Assembly (NCBI GenBank): GCA_964444635.1
Contig: CAYUIA010000002.1
Span: 1-36,176 of the forward strand
Length of the DNA: 36,176 bases
Source of the DNA: an uncultured Gammaproteobacteria bacterium
Lineage (GTDB): Bacteria; Patescibacteriota; Patescibacteriia; Magasanikbacterales; GWA2-37-8
Direction: 5' to 3'
Shown here: piece by piece, positions 1 through 29,302 of the stretch
Layout: the number at the start of each line of letters is the position of its first letter
How positions within the stretch are numbered: the first letter of the stretch is position 1
The notes under the pieces: generated by a model
What the model was told of the DNA's origin: nothing
The model's database searches: none
What the model saw: only the letters and a program-made list of their open reading frames with translations
Translations under genes and position numbers: made by a program

Positions 1-55
1 GAACTCCCATCCTCAGGTTCGAAGCCTGATATTTTATCCATTAAACTATAGGGGC
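1..55 (-). tRNA. tRNA-Arg (anticodon UCG), 5' portion only; 3' end lies beyond the window start
   Basis: Reverse complement of 1-55 reads GCCCCTA-TA-GTTT-AATGGATA-AAAT-A-TCAGG-CTTCGAA-CCTGA-GGAT-GGGAG-TTC. This gives an acceptor strand, a 4-bp D stem, a 5-bp anticodon stem with 7-nt loop C-U-UCG-A-A, and a T-stem strand followed by TTC. Truncated by the window edge. Confidence 0.8.
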
Positions 56-2447: not shown

Positions 2448-4616
2448 TCATAAATCATCCAAATCTCGTAAAAAACTTCCCGGCCTTATTTTCGTCGGTT
2501 TGTCTATATAAGCGCTTTCCTCGGCTTCATAAACTACCCCGCTTATTGGATCGTTAAATTTGGTGGCGCTGTCTGAAATCAACGACCTATCATCGAGCAA
2601 TTCACTGTCGATTTCGCTCAAAAACATGCTTGGTCCACTCAAACTATCTCCCCATCCCCCACCAATCATTGGATAAGTTAAAAATAAATTCTTCTTGGCG
2701 CGAGTTATAGCTACATAAAATAAACGTCTTTCTTCTTCCAGTCCTTGCGTTTCAGAGAGTGATCTATCACTTGGAAACGCACCACTACTTAGGTTGATGA
2801 TAAAAACATTCTCCCATTCCAATCCTTTGGCTTGATGCACAGTAGACAAAACGATTTTGTCTTTGACCCCTCTGGCACTTTGCGCCACCTCCCCTTCGTA
2901 AGGGGAGGATGTCCCCTCCTTAACAAGGAGGGGTGGGGGGAGGTCTTTAAAATTTTCTTGCAAAGTCGCTTCCGCCAAAAATTCTTCTAGCTTATCATAT
3001 TTTTCTGCAAATGTCGCCAATTGTTTGATGTCGGCTTTTCTGTCTTTATAATCCAGATATTCATTTTCCAGATAATCTTTATAAGCCGAATCTAAAATTT
3101 TATTTATCATATTGGCTGGCGTTCTGTCGCTAGTTAACATTTCATCCCAAATTTTCAAAAAGTTTTCAAAACCCAATTGCGCTTTACCGCCCAAAATATT
3201 TTTTATTTCCGGCAATTCTTCAATATTTTGCAAACTGCGGACAAATTCCATGATTTTTTCCACAGCTGCCGGACCTATTCCTTCTTCGTGTAACAAAACC
3301 CTTGTCCAAGCCACCAAGTCATTTAAATTACTTACTATTCGTAAATAACTTAATACATCTTTGATATGCGCGCGTTCAAAAAATTTCATTCCCCCGCGAT
3401 AATCATACTGGATTCCGGCTTTGGTCAATTCCATTTCAAGCATCTGGCTGTGTGCGCTGGCGCGAAAAAGCACAGCGATTTCACTTGGCGCTACACCTTT
3501 TTCCAAAGATTCCACAATTTTTTCCAACACAAAACTCGCTTCCATGCTTTGGTCCATCTGCGGGCGTAATTGCGGTTTATCTCCTCCGTCTTTTATCGGT
3601 TTTAAACTTTTTTTGTATTGTTTGGTGTTATAAGAAATAATATCATTGGCGATTTCCAAAATTTCTTTGGTACTGCGATAATTGGTTTCCAATTTAAAAA
3701 TTTTTGCCTCCGGATAATCTCGTTCAAAATTTAAAATATTTTCTATATTGGCGGCACGAAAAGAGTAGATGCTTTGCGCATCATCACCAACAACCAAAAT
3801 ATTTTTATGCACACTGGCCAACTTTTTTATAATTTCCGCTTGAATTTTGTTGGTATCTTGATATTCGTCCACCATGATATATTGAAATTGCGTGGCAAAT
3901 TTATTTTTTATTTCTTCATTTTGCAAAAGCAGTAACCAATTGGTCAAAAGGTCATCAAAATCCATGCAATTGGCTTGTTTTTTGCGTTTTTCATACTCAC
4001 TCCATAAATTTTTTATCTGATCAGCTACAGCAAACCATTGCGGATATTTCAAATCCAAAACTTCTTCAATTGTTGTATCGGCATTTTTGGCAAAAGAAAT
4101 TATTCCTTGCAACACATTAGCCGAAGGATTTTTTTTGTCCGTTCCGGAATTAAAAATATCTTTGGCGCAAAGTTTTATCAAACTGCGACTATCCTCGCTA
4201 TCAAGCACGGTAAATTTTTCCGTATATCCTATAAAACTCGCATGGCGTTTCAAAATTTTATAAGCAATACTATGAAAAGTCCCCGCCCAAGGGAGGATAT
4301 TGGCGGTCTTCGGTCTTCGGTCTTCGGTCTTCGATTGTCCGTAGTCTGTAGTCTGATTGTCCGTAGTCAACTGTGGTCTGTAGACCGTAGACCGTAGACC
4401 ACTTACTCGCTCTATCATCTCGCCCGCTGCTTTGTTGGTAAAAGTCACAAGTAAAATATTTTCCGGTTTTATCCCTTGTTCCAATAGATATGCAACACGA
4501 TAAGTAACCGTTCTTGTCTTGCCCGAACCAGCTCCGGCCAATACTAAACAAGGACCTATCCCCATATAGATAACGGCCAATTGTTCTTGATTGAGCTCTT
4601 TGGAATAATCAATCAT
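2448..4616 (-). CDS. pcrA: UvrD/PcrA-family SF1 ATP-dependent DNA helicase (722 aa) carrying two in-frame repeat-element insertions
   Basis: Walker A AGAGSGKT, motif Ia TFTNKAAGEM, GTFHS, DEYQDTN, VGDDAQSIYSFRAA, TNYRS, STVHQAKGLEW, YVAITRAK. Confidence 0.95.
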   Translation of the reverse strand: MIDYSKELNQEQLAVIYMGIGPCLVLAGAGSGKTRTVTYRVAYLLEQGIKPENILLVTFTNKAAGEMIERVSGLRSTVYRPQLTTDNQTTDYGQSKTEDRRPKTANILPWAGTFHSIAYKILKRHASFIGYTEKFTVLDSEDSRSLIKLCAKDIFNSGTDKKNPSANVLQGIISFAKNADTTIEEVLDLKYPQWFAVADQIKNLWSEYEKRKKQANCMDFDDLLTNWLLLLQNEEIKNKFATQFQYIMVDEYQDTNKIQAEIIKKLASVHKNILVVGDDAQSIYSFRAANIENILNFERDYPEAKIFKLETNYRSTKEILEIANDIISYNTKQYKKSLKPIKDGGDKPQLRPQMDQSMEASFVLEKIVESLEKGVAPSEIAVLFRASAHSQMLEMELTKAGIQYDYRGGMKFFERAHIKDVLSYLRIVSNLNDLVAWTRVLLHEEGIGPAAVEKIMEFVRSLQNIEELPEIKNILGGKAQLGFENFLKIWDEMLTSDRTPANMINKILDSAYKDYLENEYLDYKDRKADIKQLATFAEKYDKLEEFLAEATLQENFKDLPPPLLVKEGTSSPYEGEVAQSARGVKDKIVLSTVHQAKGLEWENVFIINLSSGAFPSDRSLSETQGLEEERRLFYVAITRAKKNLFLTYPMIGGGWGDSLSGPSMFLSEIDSELLDDRSLISDSATKFNDPISGVVYEAEESAYIDKPTKIRPGSFLRDLDDL
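2865..2945 (-). repeat. 81-bp triple-hairpin repeat element inside the helicase CDS (27 codons, in frame)
   Basis: Its reverse complement aligns end to end with intergenic 11557-11636, with about 9 differences over 81 positions by hand alignment. Confidence 0.85.
4304..4402 (-). repeat. 99-bp heptad word-repeat palindrome inside the helicase CDS (33 codons, in frame)
   Basis: CGGTCTT x4, then ATTGTCCGTAGTC / TGTAGTC / TGATTGTCCGTAGTC, then GTAGACC x3 ending in CAC. Left-arm heptads are complementary to right-arm heptads in 6 of 7 positions. Confidence 0.8.
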
Positions 4617-4619
4617 AGC

Positions 4620-5198
4620 TTAACTTTGTGCCGGTTCTTTTAGACCTACCGCATTTTCTTTGTTTATTTTATCTGCATTTAACAACAACACTTCTAAATC
4701 AGCCATTATTTTTTCCGGTGCGCCTTTACTCTTAAACCAGAGGTCATCAATCTCGCAAAAATATTCTCCTTTTATTTTCCCTGTTTTCAAATTAATACTA
4801 ACTTTCTGACCGGTTTTTTCTTTTACCAATTTTTCCAACACCTGTTTAAGAGTCGGTTCTTTGCTTTTTTCGGAATTATTTACTTCTTTTTTTAATTGTG
4901 CCGTGTAAACAGAGGTCCTGTTCAATAAATATTTTTTAATTTCCTCTCTTCTTTCTTGCCATTTTTGAGTAAAAGATATTGCTATGATTTTTTCTCCATT
5001 TTGAAAATCTATATTTTCTAAATGACCTTCTCTGCCCCGATTAGTTTTAACCAAAACATAGCCGTCTTTTATTCTATTTTGAAAATCCTCGTTGTGGGGA
5101 TCATAGAGGTCGCCCAAACCGTCTATTACACCGCTTTCAGGAACTTTTTCCCATTTTATCCCTTCATTTTCCGGATTAAATTTTTCTTTTTCTGACAT
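4620..5198 (-). CDS. Hypothetical protein (192 aa, starting MSEKEKF)
   Basis: The track ORF runs to 5231, but that ATG lies inside the predicted -10 hexamer (TATGAT), so I favour ATG 5198. The stop is 4 nt upstream of the helicase start, implying co-transcription. Confidence 0.6.
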   Translation of the reverse strand: MSEKEKFNPENEGIKWEKVPESGVIDGLGDLYDPHNEDFQNRIKDGYVLVKTNRGREGHLENIDFQNGEKIIAISFTQKWQERREEIKKYLLNRTSVYTAQLKKEVNNSEKSKEPTLKQVLEKLVKEKTGQKVSINLKTGKIKGEYFCEIDDLWFKSKGAPEKIMADLEVLLLNADKINKENAVGLKEPAQS

Positions 5199-5226
5199 AT
5201 TTTTTATTATTATTTTTAACTTGACT

Positions 5227-5256
5227 ATCATACCACATCATTGATTTTTTTCGCAA
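5227..5256 (-). promoter_or_regulatory. Sigma70-type promoter for the 4620..5198/helicase operon
   Basis: Minus strand TTGCGA-N18-(TGg)TATGAT. Confidence 0.45.
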
Positions 5257-5269
5257 GATATGGTATAAA
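5241..5269 (+). promoter_or_regulatory. Sigma70-type promoter for tgt, divergent and overlapping the previous one
   Basis: TTGATT-N17-(TGg)TATAAA, about 27 nt upstream of ATG 5296. Confidence 0.45.
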
Positions 5270-5295
5270 ATGATACCAATATACCAATTTATTTT

Positions 5296-6558
5296 ATGTT
5301 TTTCGAAACTCTCAAAAAAGACAACCAAACCAAAGCCCGCACTGGCATTATTCACACCGACCACGGGAATATTGAAACTCCCGCTTTTATGCCTGTCGGC
5401 ACCCAAGCTACCGTCAAAACCCTGGACCAACAGGACTTGCTTGATATTGACGCGCAAATAATTCTTGGTAATACCTATCATTTACATTTACGTCCAGGCG
5501 AAGATCTCATCGCGGGACAAGGCGGTTTGCATAAATTTATGAATTGGAATAAACCGATTTTGACCGACTCCGGCGGATTTCAAGTTTTTTCTTTGGGCTT
5601 ACAAAAAATAATGTCATCGCGAGCCACCAAAGGTGGCGTGGCGAACCCACTACAAGCAGATAACAATGGGATTGCTTCGACTTCGTCTCGCAATGACAAA
5701 ACCAAACAAGGTGGTTTGGTAAATATCGATGAAGAAGGTGTGACTTTCCAAAGTCACATTGATGGCAGTTCGCATCGTTTCACTCCCGAATCAGCAATTG
5801 AAATCCAGCATAAACTCGGAGCTGATATTATCATGGCGTTTGACGAATGTACACCGGACACCGCACCTCGCGAATACATAGAAGAAGCTATGCAGCGCAC
5901 CCATCGCTGGGCTGATCGTTGTATCAAAGAACATCAAAAAAATACCTCTTATCACGGCTACAACCAATTTTTATTTGGCATTATCCAAGGTGCCGGAGAC
6001 GAAGAGCTTCGCAAAAAATCCGCACAATATATTTCTTCCCTTCCTTTTGACGGCATTGCTATTGGCGGAGAAAGTATCGGCTATAATATGGACGCTACTA
6101 AAAATATTTTGGATTGGGTTACTCCGATTATTCCGGAAAACAAACCTCGCTACACCATGGGGCTTGGACTTTCACCTCTTGATCTACTGATTGCCGTGGA
6201 ACATGGCGCAGATATGTTTGATTGTGTCGCTCCAACTCGTCTCGCTCGTCACGGCATGCTTTTTTGTCATTGCGAGAGTAACGAAGCAATCCCACAAATT
6301 AACAAACATCGTTTGAATATAAAAAATTCAATTTTTATTAACGACCTCTCCCCGATTGATCCGAATTGTACTTGTCCGGTTTGTAAAAATTATACTCGCT
6401 CATATTTGCACCATCTTTTCTCCGCAGACGAAATGACGGGCATGCGCTTGGCAACTATTCACAATCTTTACTTCATGCTGAATTTAATGAAAGAAACGCG
6501 AAAAGCGATAAACGAAGACAGGTTTACAGAATTACTCAACAAGTGGAAAACGGCTTAA
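5296..6558 (+). CDS. tgt: Queuine tRNA-ribosyltransferase (420 aa) with in-frame repeat-element insertions
   Basis: TPAFMPVGT, LTDSGGFQVFSL, IMAFDEC, GIAIGG, Zn site CTCPVCKNYTRSYLHHL. Confidence 0.95.
   Translation: MFFETLKKDNQTKARTGIIHTDHGNIETPAFMPVGTQATVKTLDQQDLLDIDAQIILGNTYHLHLRPGEDLIAGQGGLHKFMNWNKPILTDSGGFQVFSLGLQKIMSSRATKGGVANPLQADNNGIASTSSRNDKTKQGGLVNIDEEGVTFQSHIDGSSHRFTPESAIEIQHKLGADIIMAFDECTPDTAPREYIEEAMQRTHRWADRCIKEHQKNTSYHGYNQFLFGIIQGAGDEELRKKSAQYISSLPFDGIAIGGESIGYNMDATKNILDWVTPIIPENKPRYTMGLGLSPLDLLIAVEHGADMFDCVAPTRLARHGMLFCHCESNEAIPQINKHRLNIKNSIFINDLSPIDPNCTCPVCKNYTRSYLHHLFSADEMTGMRLATIHNLYFMLNLMKETRKAINEDRFTELLNKWKTA
5613..5697. repeat. GTCATYGCGA...TCGCRATGAC palindromic (MITE-like) element inside the tgt CDS
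   Basis: GTCATCGCGAG...CTCGCAATGAC termini. Internal mini-hairpins CCACC-AAA-GGTGG and GAC-TTC-GTC. The reverse complement of the right arm (GTCATTGCGAGACGAAGTCGAAGCAATCCCA) matches the left arm of the 9639 copy and the half copy at 6266. Confidence 0.85.
6266..6295 (+). repeat. Half copy (one arm) of the same element inside the tgt CDS
   Basis: GTCATTGCGAGAGTAACGAAGCAATCCCAC compared with 9639-9675 GTCATTGCGATCCGCCATGGCGGAGAAGCAATCCCAC. Translated as CHCESNEAIP. Confidence 0.65.
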
Positions 6559-8912: not shown

Positions 8913-9012
8913 ATATTAAAAATTTAATTAATCCTACCTTATATCTTATGCTTGTTTTTGAAAACTGTCAAAACTTGCCTTTCTTTATTTTTTAAACTAA
9001 ACTGGATAGCAT

Positions 9013-9135
9013 CTCCCCTCTCCTTACAAAGCCTGGTCCCATACCAACCCGCAAGGGTCTGGTGTCGGGAGAGAGGGTTAGGGTGAGGTTAGGTTTGGCT
9101 TCCCTCTCCTTACGAAGGAGAGGGTTAGGGTGAGG
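9013..9135. repeat. Two tandem copies of the CCTCTCCTTAC..GGAGAGGGTTAGGGTGAGG palindromic element
   Basis: Copy A is 9013-9088 (long loop) and copy B is 9101-9135 (TCCCTCTCCTTACGAAGGAGAGGGTTAGGGTGAGG). Confidence 0.8.
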
Positions 9136-9154
9136 TCTTACTATATTATAAACT

Positions 9155-9622: not shown

Positions 9623-9638
9623 AACATCCATGTTATGT

Positions 9639-9726
9639 GTCATTGCGATCCGCCATGGCGGAGAAGCAATCCCACTGCTTTCTGAAATTTGTGGGATCGC
9701 CGCGTTCCTTCAGGACTCGCGATGAC
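9639..9726. repeat. Intergenic full copy of the GTCATTGCGA...TCGCGATGAC element (88 bp)
   Basis: Left arm GTCATTGCGATCCGCCATGGCGGAGAAGCAATCCCAC. Right arm GTGGGATCGCCGCGTTCCTTCAGGACTCGCGATGAC. Confidence 0.85.
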
Positions 9727-9730
9727 AAAC

Positions 9731-10359: not shown

Positions 10360-10427
10360 ATATTTAATATTATTAATAATTAATTATCTATAATATACCA
10401 CAAAACCGCCTTTATTTCAAGACAAAA

Positions 10428-10491
10428 CGTATGTCGTATTTCGTATATCGTATATCACATACTAAATACTAAATACGATATACTATATACG
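10428..10491. repeat. Word-repeat palindrome (CGTAT words / ATAC words)
   Basis: CGTATGTCGTATTTCGTATATCGTATATC ... ATACTAAATACTAAATACGATATACTATATACG. Confidence 0.6.
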
Positions 10492-10569: not shown

Positions 10570-11553
10570 ATGTCCAAAAAACGCATTTTTTCCGGAGTTC
10601 AACCAACCAACAACATTCACATTGGTAACTATTTTGGCGCAATCAAAAACTGGGTGGATGTGCAAGATCAATTTGATTGTATTTTTTCCGTAGTGGATTT
10701 ACACGCCATCACAGTTTATCAAAAGCCCGAGGACTTACGACAAAATATCTTCAATATTGCCAAAACTTATCTGGCGCTGGGTATCAATCCCAAAAAATGT
10801 CTCATTTTCCAACAATCTGATGTCAAAGAACACGCGGAACTCTGTTGGCTACTAAACAGTATTGCCAAAATGGGAGAATTGGAACGTATGACTCAATACA
10901 AAGATAAATCCGCTTCTCATCCGGAAAATATCAATGTCGGACTTTTTGATTATCCTGTGCTTATGGCTGCAGATATTTTACTTTATAATACACAGGCTGT
11001 ACCGGTCGGGGAAGACCAAAAACAACATTTGGAATTGGCCCGTGATTTGGCTATTCGTTTTAACTCTCTTTACGGAGAAACTTTTGTCGTTCCCGAACCT
11101 ATGATCAAAAAAGAAGGTTGTCGTATCATGGGTCTGGACAATCCACTCAAAAAAATGAGTAAATCCGCTCCATCAACTTATAACTATATTTCCTTGCTTG
11201 ATACCCCAGAAGAAGCAAAGAAAAAAATCATGAAAGCCGTGACTGATTCAGGTAGTGAAATTAAATTTGATCCTGAAAAACCGGCACTCTGCAATTTACT
11301 CACTATTTATTCTCAACTTTCAGGCGATCTTATCAGTAATATTGTAGAAAAATATACTGGCAAAGGTTATGGTGATTTCAAAAAGGATTTAGCCGAGTTA
11401 GTCGCCAACTTCTTGGTTGATTTCCAAAAAAAGTTTAATAAAATATCTGATAAAGAAGTAAAAAAACTATTAGAAGACGGCGCAGAAAAAGCGCGAAAAA
11501 TCGCAGCCAAGAAAATGGAAGAAGTGAAACAAAAAATCGGGATAAAAATATAA
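10570..11553 (+). CDS. trpS: Tryptophan--tRNA ligase
   Basis: 327 aa; SGVQPTNNIHIGNY (HIGH-type motif), KMSKS. Confidence 0.95.
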   Translation: MSKKRIFSGVQPTNNIHIGNYFGAIKNWVDVQDQFDCIFSVVDLHAITVYQKPEDLRQNIFNIAKTYLALGINPKKCLIFQQSDVKEHAELCWLLNSIAKMGELERMTQYKDKSASHPENINVGLFDYPVLMAADILLYNTQAVPVGEDQKQHLELARDLAIRFNSLYGETFVVPEPMIKKEGCRIMGLDNPLKKMSKSAPSTYNYISLLDTPEEAKKKIMKAVTDSGSEIKFDPEKPALCNLLTIYSQLSGDLISNIVEKYTGKGYGDFKKDLAELVANFLVDFQKKFNKISDKEVKKLLEDGAEKARKIAAKKMEEVKQKIGIKI

Positions 11554-11556
11554 ATA

Positions 11557-11636
11557 GACCTCCCCTACCCCTCCTTGCTAAGGAGGGGACATCCTCCCCT
11601 TAGCAAGGGGAGGTGTCACGAAGTGACAGAGGGGTC
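11557..11636 (+). repeat. Intergenic copy of the 80-bp triple-hairpin element
   Basis: CCCCTCCTT-gct-AAGGAGGGG, CCTCCCCTT-agc-AAGGGGAGG, TGTCAC-gaa-GTGACA, closed by GACCTCCCC...GAGGGGTC. Confidence 0.85.
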
Positions 11637-11648
11637 TCTTACAAAAAA

Positions 11649-16077: not shown

Positions 16078-16106
16078 AAGTCCGTTCGAAAGAGCGGACT
16101 TTTTTG
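16078..16106 (+). terminator. rplA terminator
   Basis: AAGTCCG-ttcgaaaga-GCGGACTT followed by TTTT. Confidence 0.7.
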
Positions 16107-16109
16107 TCT

Positions 16110-16228
16110 GTCATTCCCGCCTCCGAGCGGGAATCCAGTGGTCAATTTAATATTAAACTTTCCTGGATCCCTCGCATTTCCCAAAGGGAGGCCTTTGGCC
16201 CGCGGGATGACACTTCGTGTCATTTTTT
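16110..16228. repeat. GTCATTCCCGC...GCGGGATGAC palindromic element plus terminal hairpin
   Basis: GTCATTCCCGCCTCCGAGCGGGAATCCAG ... CTGGATCCCTCGC...GCGGGATGAC, then ATGACAC-ttc-GTGTCAT followed by TTTTT. Confidence 0.75.
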
Positions 16229-21610: not shown

Positions 21611-21639
21611 TTGACTTAACTGTTTAAAAAAGGTAAAAT
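21611..21639 (+). promoter_or_regulatory. Sigma70-type promoter of gatB
   Basis: TTGACT-N17-TAAAAT. Confidence 0.6.
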
Positions 21640-21683
21640 CGTATATAGTATGTAATATATAGTATCAAAAATACGATATACGA
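21640..21683 (+). repeat. Word-type hairpin in the gatB 5'UTR
   Basis: (T)CGTATATAGTAT ... ATACGATATACGA. Confidence 0.5.
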
Positions 21684-21697
21684 AAATATTAAATTTT

Positions 21698-28261: not shown

Positions 28262-28334
28262 TATTTAGTATAAAGTATATAGTATTTAGTATTAAGTATC
28301 CATACTTTATACTTAATACTCAATACTAAATACT
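28262..28334. repeat. Word-repeat palindrome (AGTAT/TTAGTAT words / ATACT words)
   Basis: Fills the whole ruvA / NIF3 intergenic gap. Confidence 0.75.
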
Positions 28335-29302
28335 TATTTATTTTTCTTATTACGGTTTACACGAATAAGTCCTCCACAAGTCAGCACTTCCACGCCTTTC
28401 TTTTCAAGCTCGTCAAGAAATAAATTCATTCCCAAAGAATCCGAAGAAATATGTCCGGCTACTACCACATTCATAAATTGCTCTTTGGCTTTGTTCATAG
28501 CATCGTCTTTCATATGCATAGTCACAATAGTACTAATCCCGGCTTTACTCAAAATTTCGTAAACTTTTTGTGACGGGTTGGTGCCACCGGTCATTTCCAT
28601 CAAAAATTTACCGACTCGATGTCGCGGATTGCCGGCAAACAGTTTCGGTCCGGCTCCGACTTTTTTTGCTTCAGAATATTCAGGGATTTCCAGTAAAACT
28701 TTTAACAGCTCATTTATAGTTTCCGGTTTCTTATTTTTCAAAAACTTTTCCACATATTGACTTACCAAATTATCGGTTACTGTGTGCGTATTCATCAAAT
28801 CAATTTGCAAAAGTTTGGCCATATCAATGACCTGAAAATGATTGGCCGGGTGAACACTGCGCCCTACTTCTTTCATTCTTTCTTCAGTTATTTGTTCGGC
28901 CAGATGAACCGGAATACCGAGATTTTCATAAACTTCAACCACCATATCCATCACTCCGTGCAAATCCGCCAATCCCCTGCCTATCGGATGGTGTGCCAAA
29001 ATCAAATCTATTTTTTTACCTCTTTCATTAAGTTGAGAAGCCAAGAGGATTTCCGCTGGTCCTATATCAATCCCGGCCAAAATTCTTTTTACCGGTTTCT
29101 TGGGGTCGCCCAGATGCAAACGACTATCCGCATAAGGGTTAAAAAGTCGTTCAGTATCAAAATATTTTTTATCTGCCGGTTTGAGATCTTCATATTCTTT
29201 TTTGACTCTACTGAGATATTTTTTGACTCCTTTTTCACCTCGCGGATCAGCTGAAATAGCCATTTTCAGAGCTGTTTCAAAGACTTGTTGAATAGTCATC
29301 AT
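28334..29302 (-). CDS. NIF3-family (DUF34) dinuclear metal centre protein
   Basis: LILAHHP and VVAGHISSD motifs. ATG 29302 or 29299 is preferred over the TTG at 29317. Confidence 0.8.
   Translation of the reverse strand: MMTIQQVFETALKMAISADPRGEKGVKKYLSRVKKEYEDLKPADKKYFDTERLFNPYADSRLHLGDPKKPVKRILAGIDIGPAEILLASQLNERGKKIDLILAHHPIGRGLADLHGVMDMVVEVYENLGIPVHLAEQITEERMKEVGRSVHPANHFQVIDMAKLLQIDLMNTHTVTDNLVSQYVEKFLKNKKPETINELLKVLLEIPEYSEAKKVGAGPKLFAGNPRHRVGKFLMEMTGGTNPSQKVYEILSKAGISTIVTMHMKDDAMNKAKEQFMNVVVAGHISSDSLGMNLFLDELEKKGVEVLTCGGLIRVNRNKKNK

Follow-up and report, generated by a model that had tools for sequence, protein, structure and literature searches.

Selfish palindromic DNA carried in frame within housekeeping genes is a textbook oddity of Rickettsia. 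The Rickettsia palindromic elements (RPEs) are short palindromic repeats that occur both between genes and in frame in housekeeping genes (Ogata et al. 2000, summarised in PMC10969869), and their in-frame inserts appear in the protein as additional stretches placed where its fold can accommodate them (PMC10969869). [quoted passage not shown] Here we describe a multi-hairpin repeat in contig CAYUIA010000002.1, a stretch of 36,176 nucleotides with a G+C content of 36% (hereafter the window, by which we mean the whole stretch analysed) from a member of the Magasanikbacterales, in the Patescibacteria or candidate phyla radiation (CPR). One copy lies in frame inside a gene for a PcrA/UvrD-type helicase and a second lies between genes. 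We consider it probable, at roughly three chances in four, that a small repeat, spreading as DNA like a MITE or a repetitive extragenic palindromic (REP) sequence, has replaced a linker of the helicase in frame and is tolerated there as a disordered loop, much as an RPE would be. No description of such elements in CPR bacteria, Patescibacteria or Magasanikbacteria was found in the literature searched, the coverage of which was incomplete.

The two copies in the window, A in the helicase gene and B in an intergenic region (Table 1), form the longest inverted repeat in the window. Global alignment gives nine differences, including one single-nucleotide gap (about 89% identity), which agrees with the end-to-end match and roughly nine differences claimed in an earlier reading made from the letters of the window (the sequence-only reading). 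A 46-nucleotide degenerate pattern drawn from the core matches these two copies and nothing else in the window, and none of 100 dinucleotide-preserving shuffles contained a match. Each copy can form a closing stem (GACCUC/GAGGGGUC) and hairpins of 9, 9 and 6 bp, of which hairpin 1 is CCCCUCCUU-loop-AAGGAGGGG, hairpin 2 is CCUCCCCUU-loop-AAGGGGAGG and hairpin 3 has the 6-bp stem. The minimum-free-energy fold of copy A consists of the closing stem and the three hairpins (-47.3 kcal/mol, z = -4.5, none of 200 shuffles being as stable). The corresponding fold of copy B (-46.4 kcal/mol, z = -4.6, again matched in stability by none of 200 shuffles) joins hairpins 1 and 2 in a single long hairpin, as their loop sequences are complementary.

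The three consecutive hairpins that the sequence-only reading assigned to both copies are therefore recovered in the predicted fold of copy A and in the consensus fold over 12 copies, but not in the predicted fold of copy B. Two pairs set hairpin 3 of copy A apart from that of the 11 other copies: one has a double compensatory change, from U-A to G-C, and the other a change from A-U to G-U. These changes had been read correctly, but the covariation between the two window copies rests on a single pair. The genic copy is indeed 27 codons long without a stop in the translation of the helicase open reading frame (ORF). The repeat is also real, but its proposed length of 81 bp fell slightly short: alignment of the 12 unique copies gives a full element of about 88 nucleotides with 8-bp terminal inverted repeats, GTAAGACC...GGTCTTAC, and the consensus GTAAGACCTCCCCTCGCCCCTCCTTGTTAAGGAGGGGATATCCTCCCCTTAATAAGGGGAGGTGTCACGAAGTGACGAAGGGGTCTTAC. 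These termini are present in 10 of the 12 unique copies and are degenerate in both copies of the window. Upstream, the start of copy B is 3 nucleotides past the stop codon of an aminoacyl-tRNA synthetase gene; downstream, about 8 nucleotides separate its end from the next start codon.

Table 1. Location of the element, its host gene and other features in the window.
Feature	Position	Strand	Remarks
Element, copy A	2865-2945	-	81 nt, in frame as helicase residues D558-V584; closing stem and three hairpins
Nine-nucleotide tract AATTTTAAA	2946-2954	-	Codons N555-F556-K557; derived, common to the other element-bearing helicase allele; from DNA comparison with L005, L007, L008 and L036
PcrA/UvrD-type superfamily-1 helicase ORF	2448-4616	-	722 aa; hosts copy A; Pfam and PDB matches
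Second in-frame helicase insert	4296-4403	-	About residues 75-107; palindrome with tandem-heptamer arms (GGTCTAC)x3 ... (GAAGACC)x4
Palindromic insert in tRNA-guanine transglycosylase gene (ORF 5296-6558)	5609-5706	+	29 aa, in frame; absent in L005
Two units of a related pyrimidine/purine-arm hairpin family	9010-9145	+	Intergenic; CCCTCTCCTT-ACG-AAGGAGAGGG-TTAGGGTGAGGTCTTAC; weak covariance-model hit (20 bits)
Inverted paralog of the transglycosylase insert	9625-9728	.	Intergenic; termini TGTCATTGCGA...TCGCGATGACA; absent in L005 and in the 96%-identical L042
Class-I aminoacyl-tRNA synthetase gene	10570-11553	+	Pfam tRNA-synt_1b, 327 aa; directly upstream of copy B; synteny with Pfam-annotated L005, L058 and L059
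Element, copy B	11557-11642	+	Intergenic; core 11557-11636 (80 nt), then degenerate 3' terminus TCTTAC

Public metagenome contigs were scanned with a pattern comprising the 3' arm of hairpin 1 and the whole of hairpin 2, which matched at 21 loci. Removal of duplicates left 10 distinct intergenic copies that are more than 90% alike and have mutually unrelated flanks. The contigs that carry them are A+T-rich (31-37% G+C), of similar G+C and from the same samples; none is a closed genome. Both window copies are also present in a closely related strain, L033, whose identity to the window is 98% along most of the aligned stretch; another relative, L042, is 91-96% identical. With a covariance model built from the alignment of the 12 unique copies, true copies reach 100-119 bits on their forward strand (copy A, 108.6 bits; copy B, 100.5 bits) and 45-55 bits when the reverse strand is scored. 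The occurrence of near-identical copies at 10 or more unrelated intergenic loci, together with the lack of the element in the closest helicase orthologs (see below), supports the earlier suggestion of a mobile or dispersed element.

The intergenic copies lie 7-76 nucleotides from neighbouring ORFs, often just past a stop codon. Relative to local transcription five are in sense and four in antisense orientation, and one lies between convergent genes; this spread over both orientations argues for an element that acts at the DNA level. The consensus has stop codons in five of six frames, as expected of a small non-coding MITE, and its terminal inverted repeats are likewise a MITE character. Several intergenic copies are nested in TATAATCCGAA...TTCGGATTATA inverted repeats. 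The TATAATCCGAA motif upstream of several copies might be read as a promoter, but it has no -35 box at the proper spacing and recurs in inverted form downstream, and is therefore taken as part of a larger palindrome.

The ORF that hosts copy A matches the Pfam families UvrD-helicase (E = 1e-78) and UvrD_C (E = 1e-62) and PDB entries of PcrA and UvrD (PcrA structure 1pjr, E = 4e-109), and its homologs are named Candidatus Magasanikbacteria or Patescibacteria in the source databases. Copy A is translated as DLPPPLLVKEGTSSPYEGEVAQSARGV, followed by KDKIVLSTVHQAKGLEW. The element is absent from the five closest ortholog clusters, P0004, P0003, P0002, P0006 and P0005, which are respectively 94%, 91%, 89%, 85% and 82% identical to the window protein over aligned columns. 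These element-free orthologs read LQEGF-TAKNIEDKQEE(Q/R)-KDKI, with the 12-residue linker TAKNIEDKQEE(Q/R), at the site where the window protein has LQENFK, then the 27 residues of the element, then KDKI. At the DNA level, 42 nucleotides of the orthologs (GGATTT...GAACAA) have given way to 90 in the window (AATTTTAAA plus the 81-nucleotide element), that is, 14 codons to 30. The event in the helicase is thus the replacement of an older linker and not a clean insertion. The proposal that an element invaded the helicase holds in that an in-frame element is present which the closest orthologs do not have; it requires amendment in that no pure insertion took place. The AATTTTAAA tract is probably the degenerate 5' end of the element, as intergenic copies read GAAAATT-GTAAGACC at this point.

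According to the sequence-only reading, a homologous segment of equal length in helicases from unrelated phyla would speak against it. The linker of Geobacillus stearothermophilus PcrA is only about eight residues shorter and is unrelated in sequence, and the distance between flanking anchors has a median of 19 among 103 Magasanikbacteria orthologs, compared with 35 in the window helicase. The PcrA alignment and the ortholog anchors therefore reveal no such homologous segment.

In a confident AlphaFold2 model built on a 79-sequence alignment (mean predicted local distance difference test score, pLDDT, 84.8; predicted template modelling score 0.81), residues 555-583, which make up the insert, are the only long segment with pLDDT below 50; a second low-confidence patch (residues 87-97, also below 50) falls within the other helicase insert. 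On its N-terminal side the segment follows the final helix of domain 2B (residues 543-552), and on its C-terminal side comes a strand continuing into the conserved VLSTVHQAKGLE segment. Two PDB entries of PcrA, 2pjr and 1qhh, contain the protein as separate chains, one ending before and the next beginning after the equivalent linker: 2pjr_A comprises 548 residues, and 2pjr_B aligns from query residue 586. This chain split reflects proteolytic nicking of an exposed loop. On the basis of the model and these structures, the insert site is the predicted flexible linker between domains 2B and 2A of the helicase. The low pLDDT and the alignment to the gap between 2pjr chains A and B support the earlier suggestion of a tolerated surface loop, and we infer that the insert is translated as such a loop, disordered in the model.

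The genic copies also differ from the intergenic ones in a manner that keeps the frame open. Placed in the helicase frame, the intergenic consensus has two stops, one at its 5' terminus (G|TAA|GAC) and one in loop 2 (CCT|TAA; CCT|TAG in copy B). In both genic alleles the terminal sequence is TTT AAA GAC and that of loop 2 is TTACGAA or TTTAGAA. This bears on whether the segment might be removed before the mature protein is made, as a mini-intron or intein-like element, or be bypassed in translation. The segment is compact and highly structured, its length is a multiple of three and it sits in an important gene, all of which would suit removal. Inteins need about 130 residues or more, and group I and II introns about 200 nucleotides or more with a conserved core. 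At 81-90 nucleotides or 27-30 residues, the segment is far below either size; it matches no Rfam intron model, and we rejected both an intein and a group I/II intron as identities. Moreover, removal at the RNA level would make it needless for the genic copies in particular to lose their in-frame stops, so that this loss counts against removal. None of the results favours the removal that the sequence-only reading had allowed for. We therefore regard removal or bypass as highly improbable.

A second element-bearing helicase allele was found in L032 and L036, which come from two samples. The L036 helicase is 83% identical to the window protein, and hence more distant from it than are four element-free orthologs; it nevertheless carries the element in frame at identical junctions (KDLPPPLLRKEGISSPLEGEVSQSDRGVKDK). 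The derived tract common to both alleles comprises the element and about 20 nucleotides on its left (CTTTGCAAGAAAAYTTTAAA), while the right flank follows each allele's own lineage. The presence of the element in this distant allele and its absence from nearer orthologs call for one of two histories, a long-standing polymorphism or the recombination of short patches between lineages. Recombination is evidently frequent at this locus, to judge from the comparison of related sequences: the L033 helicase is 98% identical to that of the window over most of its length and only 86% identical across its 5' part. Identity falls to this value where positions 631-1513 of L033 are aligned with 4405-5288 of the window, an interval that takes in the upstream gene as well as the 5' part of the helicase; in this alignment the drop indicates a recent recombination tract. 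The second helicase insert lies at the inner boundary of that tract.

These alleles also speak to the quality of the assemblies. The contigs are metagenome-assembled and repeats can be misjoined, so that the shared sequence might be a chimera. However, the window allele of the helicase was recovered in four other assemblies from different projects (L033, Ga0116177; L058, ENA; L059, Ga0116248; and the P0001 cluster, JGI, Logan and ENA), the diverged allele has the same junctions in the two further samples, and the ORF is intact. An assembly artefact has a negligible chance of accounting for these observations.

To separate constraint on nucleic acid from constraint on peptide, variability was counted across the 12 copies, with columns fixed by the search pattern excluded. 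Unpaired columns are more often variable (15 of 25) than paired ones (5 of 33; P = 6e-4 by Fisher's exact test). A double compensatory change occurs in only one of the 29 pairs of this close family. Classical covariation is thus thin, and for this reason we rely on the difference between stems and loops, on codon-position tests and on comparisons across the wider superfamily. Between the two helicase alleles, the rest of the gene differs at 14.8% of first, 8.3% of second and 39.5% of third codon positions, whereas within the element the differences (2, 4 and 3 of 27 positions, respectively) show no codon periodicity; third positions in particular differ less than in the rest of the gene (binomial P = 0.0013). 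A second, older in-frame lineage (P0024, P0097, P0071 and P0075) carries, at this site in the helicase, another member of the superfamily. Its third-position change is 0.13-0.40 in the element against 0.32-0.53 in the gene, its second-position change is mostly higher in the element than in the gene, and one of its members, L054, shows stem decay without compensation. Across the superfamily, all 19 hairpins, with 11 distinct stems, are perfectly complementary, and without exception have a 5' arm of pyrimidines only and a 3' arm of purines only.

These patterns support, without proving, constraint or homogenisation at the level of nucleic acid and little selection on the peptide. Selection on nucleic acid structure, as proposed in the sequence-only reading, is favoured by the stem/loop and codon-position comparisons, but intragenomic gene conversion from sister copies would be an alternative source of the same signal.

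The opposite case would be that the helicase gained the peptide adaptively, for instance as a new loop for interactions, and that selection on the protein keeps it. This might be argued from the open frame in two lineages, 21% of whose nucleotides differ, and from the many Magasanikbacteria orthologs that have inserts rich in Pro, Gly and Glu at the same linker. Set against this are the lack of codon periodicity, with second positions changing at a rate equal to or above that of the remaining gene, and the predicted disorder of the insert. The closest orthologs do without it, the same DNA is non-coding at 10 or more intergenic sites, and insert peptides vary widely between lineages. An adaptive origin of the peptide is on this evidence quite improbable.

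The conservation of structure could alternatively reflect a functional RNA: between genes, a 3'-end stabiliser or a site of processing or protein binding, and in the helicase mRNA, for example, a translational pause or a barrier to decay. The strong predicted fold of copy A, the conserved stems and variable loops, consistent G-U pairs on the forward strand only and the constrained third-codon positions of the genic copies would all be accommodated by such a role. So would the position of most intergenic copies within about 20 nucleotides of a stop codon, and the arms contain Shine-Dalgarno-like AAGGAGG and anti-Shine-Dalgarno-like CCTCCTT motifs. Yet the copies lie both ways relative to flanking transcription, and with five in sense and four in antisense a strand-specific RNA function cannot hold for all. 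There is, besides, no Rfam family match, no terminator-like U-tract follows either window copy (canonical terminators are separate and stand next to several copies), and stems decay uncompensated in the older genic lineage. A functional RNA is in our judgement unlikely, although less so than the adaptive peptide.

Several specific identities were rejected. The only Rfam 15 hit in the window is a fragment of a tRNA gene cut by the window edge (positions 1-55, minus strand; tRNA model, 39 bits), and the best sub-threshold score on copy B was 21 bits against a threshold of 71. ARAGORN found no tRNA, which removes a tRNA-like gene; an intrinsic terminator is contradicted by the lack of a U-tract or terminator-like site at either copy; and a diversity-generating retroelement target is contradicted by differences between copies that are not adenine-specific.

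We return to the reading we prefer, in which a family of small, non-coding, dispersed repeats would propagate at the DNA level like a MITE or a REP. One copy, with 9 nucleotides of 5' flank, would have replaced the central 14 codons of the 2B/2A linker, and would survive there because the replacement is a multiple of three and because the two in-frame stops of intergenic copies have been lost. The product would be a disordered surface loop that the helicase tolerates, and the hairpins would be kept by a process at the nucleic-acid level, either structural constraint or gene conversion from sister copies. An element that lands in frame, without stops, in a permissive loop would behave like an RPE.

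The likeness to RPEs is that of a palindromic repeat which occurs both in frame inside ORFs and between genes, in a small-genome host, with the insert at a surface position compatible with the fold, as judged from the pLDDT below 50 and the 2pjr/1qhh linker. The host differs, however (CPR/Patescibacteria here, Alphaproteobacteria for RPEs), as do size (about 88 nucleotides against about 100-150 bp) and composition, the present element being G+C-rich, with pyrimidine 5' and purine 3' arms and a three-hairpin cloverleaf. Because of these differences in host, size and composition the element is not an RPE. Furthermore, the events seen here replace existing linkers, and different elements recur at one and the same site, whether near-identical strains or members of the phylum at large are compared. 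Compared by description rather than by sequence, the element is best placed as an analogue of RPEs and not as a member of that family.

With MITEs the element has in common its small size (less than about 500 bp), non-coding nature and terminal inverted repeats, and a mostly intergenic distribution with occasional in-frame fusion to ORFs; it differs in having no target-site duplication, in an apparently low copy number, and in that no parent insertion sequence turned up, although no systematic search for one was made. A REP is a single palindrome of 20-40 nucleotides with a conserved 5' tetranucleotide, extragenic by definition and present in high copy number, and REPs and bacterial interspersed mosaic elements (BIMEs) are mobilised by RAYT (HUH) transposases. 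The present element resembles REPs and BIMEs in forming hairpin repeats just downstream of genes in both orientations, in its conserved stems and variable loops, and in clusters of different units at the same intergenic site in different strains. In contrast to them it is an 88-nucleotide composite of four helices, with genic copies and a low copy number. No RAYT gene was noticed in the DNA analysed, although no search aimed at one was made.

A number of observations weigh against the reading we prefer. No consistent target-site duplication was seen in the flanks of the 10 intergenic copies, which departs from a MITE, and a classical duplication was rejected on the same flanks. No cognate transposase turned up, in the absence of a systematic search, the only such gene noticed being an unrelated one of the rve family in L053; transposition itself is thus conjectural. 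The events in the helicase and in distant orthologs are replacements rather than insertions, which classical cut-and-paste transposition does not predict. The presence of the element in two non-sister helicase lineages requires an extra event, either recombination or ancestral polymorphism. Translation and retention of the insert are predicted from the DNA; the predicted tryptic peptide EGTSSPYEGEVAQSAR is an example that would span the insert junction. In addition, the covariance model finds only two full copies in about 47 kb of the window's own genome, with no further full copy in the window or in 9.3 kb and 1.9 kb of flanking DNA. Among about 185,000 species-representative genomes there are only four related elements (two in metagenome-assembled genomes of Patescibacteria and two in such genomes labelled Gammaproteobacteria and Ignavibacteriales), all with the same modular plan and a different third hairpin, and a closed genome rich in copies was not among the hits of that scan. 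These counts mark the family as low-copy and patchy. A search of protein databases with concatenated six-frame peptides of the element had no match, not even the helicase itself, and is accordingly uninformative on other in-frame hosts.

The element is one of several palindromic inserts in this genome and its relatives. The second insert of the window helicase is absent in L005, identical in L008 and present as a variant in L007 and L036; its heptamers resemble the element termini GGTCTTAC and GTAAGACC. At that site L033 instead has half of a hairpin-1-type element (KSSHHPSPLLGQEGIK). The tRNA-guanine transglycosylase is 420 residues long in the window and 391 in L005 (391 to 457 in other lineages). 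Its insert reads MSSRATKGG...STSSRNDK, with DNA termini TGTCATCGCGAG...CTCGCAATGACA, and in L033 a reverse-oriented partial copy of the main element family occupies the site instead (covariance-model score 32 bits). At the site of copy B, relatives have one or two units of the hairpin family found at 9010-9145 between conserved flanks.

The helicase is affected well beyond the window. The 105 Magasanikbacteria PcrA sequences have three insertion hot spots, and in about 16 of them, spread over about 10 scattered neighbour-joining clusters, related hairpin elements lie in the 2B/2A linker, where they again replace the middle of the old linker. DNA of six such orthologs confirms the hairpins, which the covariance model recognises on the coding strand with up to 51.5 bits. 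Domain 2B holds the third hot spot, which falls between window residues 448 and 475 and has inserts of up to about 35 residues in P0019, P0024, P0033, P0059, P0064, P0070, P0075, P0083, P0094 and others. Many of these inserts, SSRAK...GRNDK or CHPE...SLS, are translations of GTCAT...ATGAC-type palindromic repeats, and the same peptide types occur at the N-terminal site.

Other repeats of similar build were noted in passing. Intergenic A+T-rich palindromes with tandem-heptamer arms (TCGTATA/ACGATAT and AGTATNT types) lie at 10427-10491, 21638-21685 and 28262-28335 of the window, and in L039 a tandem-heptamer architecture, (ACGAATNN)x4 ... (ATTCGTNN)x4, surrounds a core of the pyrimidine/purine-arm hairpin. 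Another MITE-like repeat, with termini GTCATTCCCGC...GCGGGATGAC, is present at 16103-16218 of the window and at about 2710-2823 of L008, which carries it where the window has the inverted paralog of the transglycosylase insert. In IMG/VR viral contigs of varied G+C (L010-L028), 19 stretches contain the exact hairpin CCTCCCCTT-NNN-AAGGGGAGG, usually with CCCCACCC/GGGTGGGG-type flanking tracts and often just upstream of a start codon, so that the range of such pyrimidine/purine-arm hairpins extends beyond CPR bacteria.

The replacement behaviour, the re-use of sites and the strict pyrimidine/purine asymmetry of the arms leave room for an unfamiliar, hairpin-directed mechanism. A wider and decidedly more tentative proposal, which we hold to be doubtful, is that the pyrimidine/purine-arm multi-hairpin elements form a phylum-wide superfamily in which hairpin-directed replacement, instead of classical transposition, repeatedly overwrites the same sites while selection at the nucleic-acid level keeps the structures. 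If this were true, the overwritten sites would comprise three permissive PcrA loops, further loops in the tRNA-guanine transglycosylase and fixed spots between genes, and the swapping of elements between near-identical strains would amount to a cassette-exchange system inside core genes.

The finding is comparable to the in-frame selfish DNA of Rickettsia, now in CPR bacteria, another group with very small genomes. The elements differ from those of Rickettsia, the same protein loops are occupied repeatedly, and strains that are 98% identical differ in the element they carry. Such inserts inflate and scramble protein alignments of CPR core genes and create false "hypothetical" peptides, and they are sensitive strain markers. 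Strand-asymmetric hairpins and the replacement behaviour pose a mechanistic question, and the process may be a general route by which reduced genomes gain and turn over protein loops.

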